DNA from: Kordiimonadaceae bacterium
GTDB lineage: Bacteria; Pseudomonadota; Alphaproteobacteria; Sphingomonadales; Kordiimonadaceae
Length of the DNA: 64,000 nucleotides
Reading direction: 5' to 3'
NCBI GenBank assembly: GCA_017640725.1
Contig: JAEPQB010000003.1
Location: 544,704-608,703, forward strand
Shown here: positions 4,359-60,482 of the stretch, piece after piece
Position numbering within the stretch: the first letter of the stretch is position 1
Layout of the letters: every line of letters starts with the position of its first letter
Program-made: the position numbers and the translations under genes
The notes under the pieces: generated by a model
What the model was told of the DNA's origin: nothing
Database searches by the model: none
The model's input: the letters and a program-made list of their open reading frames with translations, nothing else

Positions 4359-6503
4359 CTACTCAGACACTGGACTGGGGCTGTTTTTTGAAAATAATCT
4401 GTGCGGGCTGGCATACTCAGCCCGCATTTTGTTTGGCTGAATATCATCAAGATACAAGCCGACAGGACCAGCGGCAGCAATGTCCTCAATTGCTAAGAAC
4501 ACTGCTGGGTTGCGACAATGGCGCCGCAAGTCATAGGGCGCAATGACGATATGACCTGTGTTGCAAGCGTTTCTAACGACCTCAAGTGAGACGCTTCGGA
4601 CAATTCGCAGATTTTGCGCTGTTGAGCTTGGGACGGCAATATTAGTTAGGCAACCACGGTCATTACATTTTCTGTCGAGTTTTTTGCTTGGCGCGTTTAA
4701 GGGCATATTCCAGTAGCGCATCCAGATTTCGTCCCGAAAACCACCGCGTCTGCCCCCTATCACCCGAAATTCGTGGTTGTCAGATTTTGCAGCAATGATG
4801 CGCCCTTCGCTGTCTATCAATATGATTGCCGTGTTTTTTTGCATGAGGGCAATCGCAACAACGAACGTCAAGCTGATCGCTATTGGCATCAATCGATGCC
4901 TTATTAACATTAGCAAAGCGAACAGCAGGAACGTTACCAACAAGACTTCTGGGTGAAATGGCCCTGCCCGAAGCACGCTTAAGGGGGCCTCAATCAAAAA
5001 TGAAGACAGGGCAATAATCCAATCTAGCCCCAAGCCCATGACCGCCAAGAGCACCCCATCCAACCCCAAGGGTATGAGAACAAGCGACAGAAAAGCAGCC
5101 GGCATCACAATAAAGGCCATGAGAGGTACGGCAAGTATATTGGCAAGGATGCCAATCACCGATAGTGCCTGAAAGTGAAACAGGGCAATGGGTGCAATGG
5201 CGACCTGTGCAACCAAACTGGTCAGGGCTGTGGCTGCGACGAATGTACCCAGATTATGAAATCTCCGCTGAACTGTTGAATTTTGAATTTGTTGCTGTCT
5301 CGAAGATCTGCCGCGGCTGACACTTTCATAGAAGACTATGAGTCCAATGGTAGCTGCAAAGGACATCTGAAAGCTGATCGACAAAATTGCCTGCGGAGTC
5401 ATGACTAGAATAGCCATTGCAGCAAGAGCGACACTTCTAAGTGACAGTACTCTGCGGTCTGTGACAACCGCCAACAACGCAATGGATACCATGACAAAAG
5501 CCCGCAAGGTGCTTATGCCGGCTCCTGACAAAAGAAGATAAACAACTGCAGTTACCCATGCCCCTAAAGCAGCAAGTTTTCGAGCAGGATAGCGGGCAGC
5601 AAAGCCAGGTAATGCCGCGAAAAGGAATTCAAGCAGGAAAAACGCAACACCTGTTATTAAGCCCATGTGAAGGCCGGAAATGGCCAACAAGTGAGCTAAG
5701 CCTGCATCGCGCAATATATTGGCTGTTGCCCTATCCAAATGTTGTCTCTGGCCAGTAATCAATGCCACCGCGACACCAGAGATGGGTTGGCTGAGCGTAG
5801 ACAAAATGCGCTCAGAAAGATTGTTTCGATAGTTGGCAAGTCGTGTGAAAAAACTGCTGTTGTGCGGCAATGACGGGTGAAAATCGATTGGTGATACTGC
5901 AAAACCCCTTAGGGCGATGCCTTTAAGCCGATGGTTGAGTGCGAAGTCAAAACCTCCTGGCACCATTGGCCCGGACTGTGGCTCCAAAATAGCTGTCAAT
6001 TGCACGGCGTGGCCTGTTGCCAGAGTATCAGGATAGTCTGTTCGCACAGTGATCTGGATGTCTTCTCCAGCTAGTTCCGGCAGTTTACTGGCCTCCATTA
6101 CGGTGATCCGCAGGCGCAGGGGCGCGGCAATACGATGCTCTATACTTTGGACGTAACCTGCTATGTTGACAAAGGATTCTCTTTCGATCTCGATATTTGG
6201 CAGTTGGTTCTTATGAACCGCAGCGATTGCTGCACCCAAGACAAAAAACGCAGTCAAAACAATTGGTGATTTCCGGTTTTCGGCCGCAAACCAACCGGTT
6301 AACAGCAGCACAAGACCAATGATCACACCGATGAAACCTGTGTATGCCGGCAATTCAAAGGTAAATGAACTCGCACACCCGACAGCGAACAGGATGGCAC
6401 TGCTAATGAGCCGCCAATCTTCATGGAGTTTGATTGCCAAGCGGCCTCGTTCAAACACCTCACTTATGGCGTTAGAGATATTGGAAAGCCTCATAAACAC
6501 CAC
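4359..6503 (-). CDS. comEC: ComEC/Rec2-family competence membrane protein
   Basis: AGLAHLLAISGLHMG, TLRAFVM and SFQMSFAA motifs, many TM segments, conserved position between lexA and gltX. Confidence 0.9.
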   Translation of the reverse strand: MVFMRLSNISNAISEVFERGRLAIKLHEDWRLISSAILFAVGCASSFTFELPAYTGFIGVIIGLVLLLTGWFAAENRKSPIVLTAFFVLGAAIAAVHKNQLPNIEIERESFVNIAGYVQSIEHRIAAPLRLRITVMEASKLPELAGEDIQITVRTDYPDTLATGHAVQLTAILEPQSGPMVPGGFDFALNHRLKGIALRGFAVSPIDFHPSLPHNSSFFTRLANYRNNLSERILSTLSQPISGVAVALITGQRQHLDRATANILRDAGLAHLLAISGLHMGLITGVAFFLLEFLFAALPGFAARYPARKLAALGAWVTAVVYLLLSGAGISTLRAFVMVSIALLAVVTDRRVLSLRSVALAAMAILVMTPQAILSISFQMSFAATIGLIVFYESVSRGRSSRQQQIQNSTVQRRFHNLGTFVAATALTSLVAQVAIAPIALFHFQALSVIGILANILAVPLMAFIVMPAAFLSLVLIPLGLDGVLLAVMGLGLDWIIALSSFLIEAPLSVLRAGPFHPEVLLVTFLLFALLMLIRHRLMPIAISLTFVVAIALMQKNTAIILIDSEGRIIAAKSDNHEFRVIGGRRGGFRDEIWMRYWNMPLNAPSKKLDRKCNDRGCLTNIAVPSSTAQNLRIVRSVSLEVVRNACNTGHIVIAPYDLRRHCRNPAVFLAIEDIAAAGPVGLYLDDIQPNKMRAEYASPHRLFSKNSPSPVSE

Positions 6504-6648
6504 TCAAACCTAAATAGTGCAGATTTTAAAGCAAATTTGTGTTGAGGCCGATCTTGTGCTAAAAGCCACGCAAGCTTCTGAAACAGCGCGTTTCAAATCC
6601 GAAAAGTGCTGAATTTAGTTAGAACTTATAAGTATTTATGAACTGAGC

Positions 6649-59469: not shown

Positions 59470-59488
59470 TACGGTCAAATATTAGCTG

Positions 59489-59521
59489 AAAAAAGGCTCC
59501 TGATACCGGGAGCCTTTTTTT
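59489..59521 (+). terminator. Terminator after glnA
   Basis: AAAAAAGGCTCC-N8-GGAGCCTTTTTTT. Confidence 0.85.
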
Positions 59522-59631
59522 ATTGTATTTTTACACGAACTTTTCTGAAGGCGTTTACTTTTTCGAAACAGCTGGCTACTAGTGTTGATGTGGGGTCGAC
59601 GGAAAACAGCGGGTAGCGAGAACGCACTTTA

Positions 59632-60168
59632 ATGATTGTCGAGTACACAGCCGAACAACAAAAAATCCAGCCTCAGCTGGCCGCGGCCAACATTAATCCA
59701 GACAGTTTTCTGGCAACCGACTACCTCAATCACTTCAATGAAATCGTGATGTTGATGGAGATGATTCCTGACATGCCTGAACTCATTGAAGAAGCAATAG
59801 AATGGGCACCAAAAACTTACGACCAGCATTTCGAAGAAAGCGGATTCCAGGCGAAAGATTTAGCTATCGAAGCCTACAAGCTGGCGCCGCCTGTATTCAA
59901 AACTCCCTTTGAAAAAACCTGTGATGAAATGCAGGGAATTATTCAGAGCACGTTGAACGGCTTAGTGGCAGTGAACGTTGTAGAGCGCGGCATGTCCCCA
60001 GCAGCTCAGCAACTTATCAGGGGGCGCATAGAAAACCTTCAATCACACCTGATGATTCTTAATCAATTGATCCACGGAAAAATTGAGGACGCCCCTCCTG
60101 CTCCGCAAGACGAGGCACCTCAAGAAGAAGTGCAGTCCCAAGAAGACATTGACAAGCTGTTTGATTGA
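59632..60168 (+). CDS. Hypothetical helical protein with CheZ/FliM-like C-terminal motif
   Basis: 178-aa ORF with a candidate promoter TTTACT-N17-TACTAG (59554-59582). Core NINPDSFLATDYLNHFNE, a P/E-rich linker, then QSQEDIDKLFD. Confidence 0.75.
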   Translation: MIVEYTAEQQKIQPQLAAANINPDSFLATDYLNHFNEIVMLMEMIPDMPELIEEAIEWAPKTYDQHFEESGFQAKDLAIEAYKLAPPVFKTPFEKTCDEMQGIIQSTLNGLVAVNVVERGMSPAAQQLIRGRIENLQSHLMILNQLIHGKIEDAPPAPQDEAPQEEVQSQEDIDKLFD

Positions 60169-60197: not shown

Positions 60198-60482
60198 TCA
60201 GGTGCGCACGAACTCTTCTGTATCGGATAGTGCAGAAACTGAAACAATCTTCATCAAATCAGGATGGTTCTCGCGACTCAGGCGCACCAATGGGTATCGA
60301 CTGGACGTAACCTCCATCACATTCTCAACGACCCAAACCGGAGCACCACTTGTGCTTTGCGCGTACCTATCACCTACAGACGGCGTTTCAGTCGCCATCA
60401 AATCCTGAGGGCCATTGAAATTCGCACCAGAGAGCGAACCCGTCATCCGGTGCCACATTGATGCTGCGAAAGATTGCGTCAT
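60198..60482 (-). CDS. Small hypothetical protein with a beta-rich C-terminal domain
   Basis: 94 aa, GAGAAAGG SD upstream of ATG, fills an otherwise empty gap. Confidence 0.6.
   Translation of the reverse strand: MTQSFAASMWHRMTGSLSGANFNGPQDLMATETPSVGDRYAQSTSGAPVWVVENVMEVTSSRYPLVRLSRENHPDLMKIVSVSALSDTEEFVRT

Follow-up and report, generated by a model that had tools for sequence, protein, structure and literature searches.

Near the end of the window, i.e., the whole stretch of 64,000 nucleotides analysed here, an open reading frame with an ATG start (59632..60168, + strand, as are all features below unless indicated) encodes a protein of 178 residues, plus stop, that belongs to an uncharacterised family. 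We refer to the gene and its product as X. The start position is common to X and its homologues in their alignment. Upstream of X lie glnB and glnA, and downstream a small convergent ORF (orf94) followed by parE. An intrinsic terminator of glnA, made of a 16-bp stem plus a T-run, is found at 59487..59522, and X is therefore a separate transcription unit. A possible housekeeping-type promoter, GTTTAC-N16-GCTACTAG, lies at 59553..59582; the assignment is of low confidence, the element is partly conserved upstream of the gene in Kordiimonadales relatives, and we take it to resemble the alphaproteobacterial sigma-70 consensus. A simple E. coli-type scan returned no + strand promoter site upstream of X, and by eye no convincing sigma-54, sigma-28 or CtrA box was seen in this region. 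We infer that X has its own promoter.

The gene order glnB-glnA-X-orf94-parE is confined to Kordiimonadales, Iodidimonas and a small number of related MAGs, and was not found at 29 other alphaproteobacterial loci. A link between X and nitrogen regulation through glnB-glnA was considered and rejected as lineage synteny, because the order is restricted to this lineage and the glnA transcript ends at a terminator before X. No family recurs among 57 flanking ORFs of X homologues in a Pfam scan. When about 110 X loci were searched by tblastn with CheA, CheB, CheR, CheW, CheY, CheZ and FliM, no chemotaxis or flagellar gene was found adjoining X, and the only match was to one distant receiver. The preliminary description had called X an orphan placed away from any che operon; the survey of neighbourhoods agrees with this location and with the term orphan as far as gene context is concerned, but the term does not suit the protein, which has more than 2,500 homologues.

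Two neighbours deserve mention in their own right. The convergent ORF (60198-60482, - strand; 94 residues) has no Pfam or NCBIfam match and recurs in the corresponding place in Kordiimonadales relatives with 40-56% identity (L005, L036, L037, L038 and L040); this conservation makes it likely to be a genuine small gene, of unknown function. At one locus only, in Azospirillum formosense (L100:2528-3322, - strand), the X homologue is preceded, at ca. 0.5 kb, by a divergent gene for a PhyR-like protein (a sigma-like N-terminal domain plus a receiver).

The X family comprises 2,572 proteins in a word-indexed search, and 767 clusters at 50% identity in an exhaustive search, 532 of which are below E = 1e-10. 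The named relatives are from Kordiimonas, other Kordiimonadales, Iodidimonas, Thalassospira, Kiloniella, Azospirillum, Skermanella, Paramagnetospirillum, Novispirillum, Insolitispirillum, Caenispirillum and Roseomonas, and are accompanied by many alphaproteobacterial MAGs. In an even sample of alphaproteobacterial genomes, X is present in 65 of 301 (54 of 248 genera), always in single copy. All source names of family members read "hypothetical protein", with the exception of one UniRef record named "Chemotaxis protein CheZ".

These proteins match no named family in the databases searched. X lacks any Pfam match at E up to 1 and any NCBIfam match, and the 110 aligned members of the family share no recurrent Pfam model, only scattered chance matches. 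Among the PDB sequences, phmmer and the family profile retrieved designed helical bundles only for X, and nothing for the tail alone; Foldseek against the PDB folds gave generic four-helix bundles, the best at E 0.4. The core is thus as unrecognised as it had initially appeared, in Pfam, NCBIfam, PDB sequences and Foldseek alike. The initial caution that X might be an already named chemotaxis accessory protein found no echo either, in that no named family claims X (Pfam, NCBIfam, cluster names). No description of the family was found in the full-text literature, where absence is not proof.

The three features from which the preliminary description started are all in place: TDYLNHFNE at residues 29-37, the linker EDAPPAPQDEAPQEEV at 152-167 and QSQEDIDKLFD at 168-178. 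An AlphaFold2 model built on an alignment of 22 sequences (mean pLDDT 87, pTM 0.77) gives residues 1-150 as an all-helical core. Per-column conservation and secondary structure delimit within it a conserved "head" of short helices (residues 20-94; 59689..59913), which holds nearly all the invariant or near-invariant residues of the protein in 110 aligned sequences: N20, T29, D30, Y31, N33, H34, N36, E37, M40, P49, W58, P60, Y63, H66, F67, S70, A81 and Y82. W58 and Y63 are invariant, and conserved blocks are formed by N20-I-N-P, H66-F67 and A81-Y82. The family signature in the head is LATDYLNHFNE (residues 27-37; 59710..59742), conserved to 90% or more at every position in the 110 sequences and without exception at T29 and D30. 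N33 and H66 are each present in 109 of the 110. Five of them have Leu or Val in place of H34, with Leu in three fusion proteins (see below) that retain D30 and N33.

The observation that a DYLN motif stands beside a histidine, in a protein devoid of the D-x3-Q of CheZ, holds as well. D30-Y-L-N33 is the sole [DE]-x-x-N of X, and makes a candidate acid/amide pair, while the sole D-x3-Q (DEAPQ, residues 160-164) falls within the unconserved, disordered linker. By helical-wheel placement, D30, N33, H34 and E37 would lie on one face of helix 30-44. The head is followed by a long helical hairpin (helices 87-113 and 123-147; 59890..60072), whose two antiparallel helices have about 25 residues each in the AlphaFold2 model and whose second helix heads back towards the head. 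The hairpin is variable in sequence except for the terminal I-I-x-G (146-149). The Pro-rich and acidic linker (residues 152-167; 60085..60132) is disordered according to pLDDT, which is below 50 at residues 154-168, and among homologues it is unconserved in sequence, differs in length and is gapped in the alignments. In the model, residues 170-177 form a short terminal helix.

The end of the protein is a docking peptide, QSQEDIDKLFD (residues 168-178; 60133..60165), that hhalign and a motif scan place in the class of the CheZ C-terminus and the FliM N-terminus. The consensus of this class, S-Q-x-x-[IV]-D-x-L-[LF] at a chain terminus, is matched by SQEDIDKLF at residues 169-177 of 178. The peptide is also in register with the SQAEIDALL of E. 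coli FliM_N. In the six-frame ORFs of the genome (3.7 million residues), the pattern Q[DE][DE]ID.[LIM][LFM] has four matches against 0.15 expected: the FliM N-terminus (VLDQDEIDSLLGF), the C-termini of two CheZ proteins, CheZ1 (VSQDDIDALFG) and CheZ2 (NSQDEIDAILAAFD), and X (QSQEDIDKLFD). The tail is conserved among homologues. The motif Q-x-x-[IVL]-[DEN]-x-[LIMVF]-[LFMI] was found after the core in 118 of 131 near-full-length representatives of the 50%-identity clusters, picked without regard to the tail, and in all 29 unselected genomic homologues; the representatives lacking it mostly show near-variants of it or seem to be frame-shifted. It typically stops one residue short of the C-terminus. 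At least two copies are present in 14 of the 131 representatives, and three or four in some long members. Many relatives carry the docking peptide directly after the last core helix instead of on a flexible linker, and in Rhodospirillales-type members the first motif comes only five or six residues after I-I-H-G.

The genome does encode chemotaxis and flagellar functions, in the form of a che cluster, two canonical CheZ genes identified with the PF04344 model and a flagellar cluster. CheZ1 (314 residues, with DITGQ) is encoded directly downstream of a 128-residue cheY on contig C7, and CheZ2 (216 residues, with DLTGQ) in the flagellar cluster on contig C9, beside fliM. The cheY-cheZ1 pair (C7:840559-841886; L001) is an orphan pair far from the che cluster, and CheZ1 has a Pro/Ala-rich linker (PAPAP...) of about 60 residues and a second motif inside the chain, IDQTAVDSLMDG, and ends in SQDDIDALFG. 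The che cluster (C7:300039-316742) encodes cheR, cheB, cheY2, cheW and a cheA of 1,031 residues, and adjoins ctrA (309026-309727), a gene for a ChpT-like phosphotransferase (316104-316742), fliI/fliJ and flhF/flhG. The single-domain receivers of the genome are CheY (C7:841503-841886), CheY2 (C7:311941-312285), two Arg-rich Cle-like regulators (C7:845542-846006 and C9:247923-248441) and another at C8:80505-80894.

The CheZ tails of 11 other X-bearing genomes come in two forms, SQxDIDALFD-COOH, which is the orphan type, and SQxxIDALLAxFD-COOH. The X tails of the same genomes are mostly of the SQxDIDALFD-COOH form, and closely so in most (the X of G131 ends in ...IDDLLLA). CheZ proteins of this form have an internal second motif too, as in X. 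The FliM of these 11 genomes has an invariant RVL[ND]QDEIDSLLGF. With the FliM peptide (E. coli M1GDSILSQAEIDALL16) X shares the register S-Q-x-x-I-D-x-L-[LF], but the motif is N-terminal in FliM and C-terminal, in the CheZ form, in X, and the rest of the two proteins is unrelated.

Compared with CheZ (PF04344; E. coli CheZ, PDB 1KMI), X has in common the C-terminal docking peptide, the flexible linker, the possible second internal copy of the motif, a helical hairpin and a strongly overlapping phyletic distribution. We nevertheless give hardly any credence to the idea that X is a highly diverged CheZ, even if the common tail, the tandem tail motif present also in CheZ, the two long antiparallel helices and the UniRef homologue labelled as CheZ would all be in line with it. 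The PF04344 model that finds both true CheZ genes of the genome misses X (E up to 1) and the 110 members of the family (E up to 0.1). The family profile finds no CheZ in the PDB sequences, nor does Foldseek in the PDB folds, and hhalign of this profile against CheZ1 and CheZ2 aligns the last 16 residues alone; apart from the tail, neither the sequences nor the profiles resemble each other. The conserved part of X is the compact N-terminal head with LATDYLNHFNE, which is absent from CheZ; its hairpin is short and variable, and it has no conserved D-x3-Q. Finally, X is never found beside cheY, in contrast to the CheZ1 of the genome.

X itself has no receiver domain, in which it differs from receiver-output fusions and Cle-type regulators, but one lineage of the family does. 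Seven clusters (54-100% identity, in assemblies from NCBI, JGI, ENA and Logan) encode a single chain in which some 35 linker residues join a CheY-like receiver to the X core, which is followed by a tail MxQDEIDKLFD. The receiver is intact in its DD/D/T/K residues (..VVDDD.., ..CDWNMEPMTG.., ..MLTS.., ..KPV..). The AlphaFold2 model of the fusion protein has two confident domains and a disordered linker, and its pTM of 0.59 means that there is no confident docking of the receiver on the head. The nearest matches of this receiver, at 57-59% identity, are stand-alone regulators with an Arg-rich FGPDRRR extension, some of which terminate in NQDEI[ED]AL[LF]. We take this extension to be like that of the Cle proteins of Alphaproteobacteria, which are reportedly CheY-like regulators.

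The distribution of X follows that of chemotaxis genes. In the 301 alphaproteobacterial genomes, and with statistics that ignore phylogeny, CheZ was found in 59 of the 65 X-bearing genomes and 78 of the 236 others (odds ratio 19.9, p 1e-17), CheW in 56 and 97, respectively (odds ratio 8.9, p 3e-11), and FliM in 58 and 130 (odds ratio 6.8, p 1e-7). The X-positive genomes are spread over ~50 family-level groups. In three of them (G206, G242 and G289), FliM, FlhA, CheW, CheA and CheZ were not detected, and the X of G206 and G242 retains the tail. These three genomes, like the absence of che and fla genes beside X, speak against a link with chemotaxis. As a separate observation, three genomes (G265, G088 and G041) have a CheZ Pfam match with FliM and CheW not found, and G265 is also without FlhA and CheA; these may be CheZ-like proteins outside flagellar chemotaxis, or incomplete assemblies.

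In E. coli, the docking motif binds the alpha4-beta5-alpha5 face of CheY-P. Peptides of this kind may have other partners: FlhG is said to bind the N-terminal EIDAL-type peptide of FliM/FliY. The tail of X could accordingly be imagined to dock a hub other than CheY, such as the MinD-like FlhG/FleN, with a role in flagellar assembly or placement or in some unrelated process. The FlhF/FlhG pair encoded beside the che cluster, the lack of a che neighbourhood around X, and the persistence of X in the three genomes without the five markers (with its tail in G206 and G242) would fit such a partner. We consider it improbable, since the tail is of the CheZ form (..DIDALFD-COOH), closely in most of the genomes examined, and not of the FliM form (RVLNQDEIDSLLGF), the fusions to CheY-like receivers point towards receivers, and CheZ is the gene with the strongest co-occurrence. 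The tail of X is instead quite likely to dock a CheY-type receiver. The preliminary reading of X, a non-CheZ core with a CheZ/FliM-type tail that has a CheY-like regulator as partner, away from che operons, is supported, and the inference from core and tail is strengthened by the orphan-type CheZ form of the tail, the co-occurrence with CheZ, CheW and FliM, and the receiver fusions. X is very probably an undescribed CheY partner; it would combine a new core with a way of docking CheY-P that is already known from CheZ and FliM.

What the core would do to the captured receiver is a matter on which we take a position only tentatively and at somewhat less than even chances, partly by analogy: X may be a cytoplasmic, stand-alone accessory protein of chemotactic and flagellar signalling that acts on phosphorylated CheY-type receivers, with the head as a phosphatase. 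The tail would capture CheY-P and raise its local concentration at the head (residues 20-94), by a tether plus a second site as in CheZ and FliM. The hairpin topology of the model suggests that the end of helix 123-147 adjoins the head, which would keep a receiver docked at this end close to the conserved surface. The head would then speed up the hydrolysis of the aspartyl phosphate of the receiver. The attacking water would be placed by D30 and N33 (along with H34 and E37), which share a helix face and would form the acid/amide pair. The helix that bears these residues on its polar face is the most conserved element of the protein, and in the head it is chiefly polar residues that are conserved. 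X would in this way be a second, non-CheZ phosphatase of CheY-P, and the receiver-X fusions would act as phosphate sinks that drain themselves. For a phosphatase or a sink, it makes sense to have several tethers, or to carry a receiver on the same chain as the drain.

The acid/amide pair is D-x3-Q in CheZ and E/D-x-x-N/T in CheC/CheX/FliY and HisKA kinases. The D30-x-x-N33 of X resembles the latter in having the acid and the amide one helical turn apart, and this likeness to known phosphatases is only an analogy. X differs from CheC/CheX/FliY in having no Pfam match, in being all-helical instead of alpha/beta and in having Asp in place of Glu, and it lacks the extended CheC/CheX signature [DS]-x3-E-x2-N-x22-P. 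The conserved histidines could also be taken to indicate an Hpt-like phosphotransfer or phosphodonor protein working through H34 or H66. Both are near-invariant, the fold is a helical bundle, and weak, non-significant Foldseek matches include Hpt and CheA-P1 domains. Yet all these matches exceed E 0.6 and none has a TM greater than 0.3, none of the 110 members matches the Hpt model (PF01627) in Pfam, and H34 is Leu or Val in five of the 110, functional-looking fusions included. The dispensability of H34, which is Leu in three fusions, argues against phosphotransfer. To our knowledge, Hpt proteins normally need no docking tail. We regard phosphotransfer by X as very improbable.

The main rival to a catalytic head is that X binds CheY-P by its tail and the head is non-catalytic, as in an adaptor, a sink or an effector. 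X might sequester CheY-P from FliM or CheZ, localise it to a polar or motor-associated partner to which the head binds, or be an output domain whose head is switched by the receiver, in trans by CheY-P and in cis within the fusions. Several observations agree with this: a receiver followed by X is the usual order of receiver plus output; two to four docking motifs, as some members have, suit sequestration or avidity; X accompanies CheZ instead of replacing it; and no known phosphatase motif is complete in X. As X is nearly always found with CheZ, it is not evident why a second phosphatase should be required. We still hold a non-catalytic head to be somewhat less likely than a phosphatase. The ~20 near-invariant positions of the head include many polar ones (D30, N33, H34, N36, E37, Y63, H66 and S70), a conservation that resembles an active or ligand site more than a simple interface. 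Furthermore, the fusions retain the tail in spite of the attached receiver, and X has no conserved partner gene nearby.

It may be, though the chances are below even, that X represents a new family and a new fold of phosphatases of response-regulator aspartyl phosphate, whose substrate would be tethered by a CheZ-type tail, either borrowed from CheZ or convergent with it. The compact helical head would insert the D-x-x-N pair into the active site of CheY. Such an enzyme would add a fourth solution to those of CheZ, CheC/CheX/FliY and Spo0E/Rap, and would have been overlooked in well-studied spirilla such as Azospirillum, the Magnetospirillum type and Thalassospira because it is never within che operons.

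The switch-off and distribution of CheY-P is a central variable of chemotaxis. Alphaproteobacteria are the classic example of pathways that have several CheY proteins and phosphate sinks, and in which the localisation of CheZ is poorly understood (PMC7750401). A single-copy CheY-docking protein with a strongly conserved core, found in roughly one in five of the alphaproteobacterial genomes sampled, among them relatives of the Azospirillum and Magnetospirillum-type models, would be a missing component of pathway models. If catalytic, X would bring a new phosphatase fold and active-site solution, and if not, a new target or buffer of CheY-P. In either case, the docking peptide of CheZ and FliM would be a portable module on unrelated cores.

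The Arg-rich regulators offer a last observation on this peptide. The two of the source genome are without a docking tail. Three others (P0335, P0338 and P0340, at loci L118-L120; the gene at L118 spans 6001-6612) are CheY-like regulators of about 200 residues with an FGPDRRR..ERR extension, and each of their genes is followed by a gene for a 166-residue protein with a weak Hpt match. Kinship between X and this Hpt-like gene was looked for and none was found. The three regulators, which are stand-alone proteins and the nearest relatives of the receiver in the receiver-X fusions, terminate in a docking-type peptide, LNQDEIEALLNS or LNQDELDALFDS, and a receiver that carries its own docking peptide suggests self-binding, either in cis or in trans.
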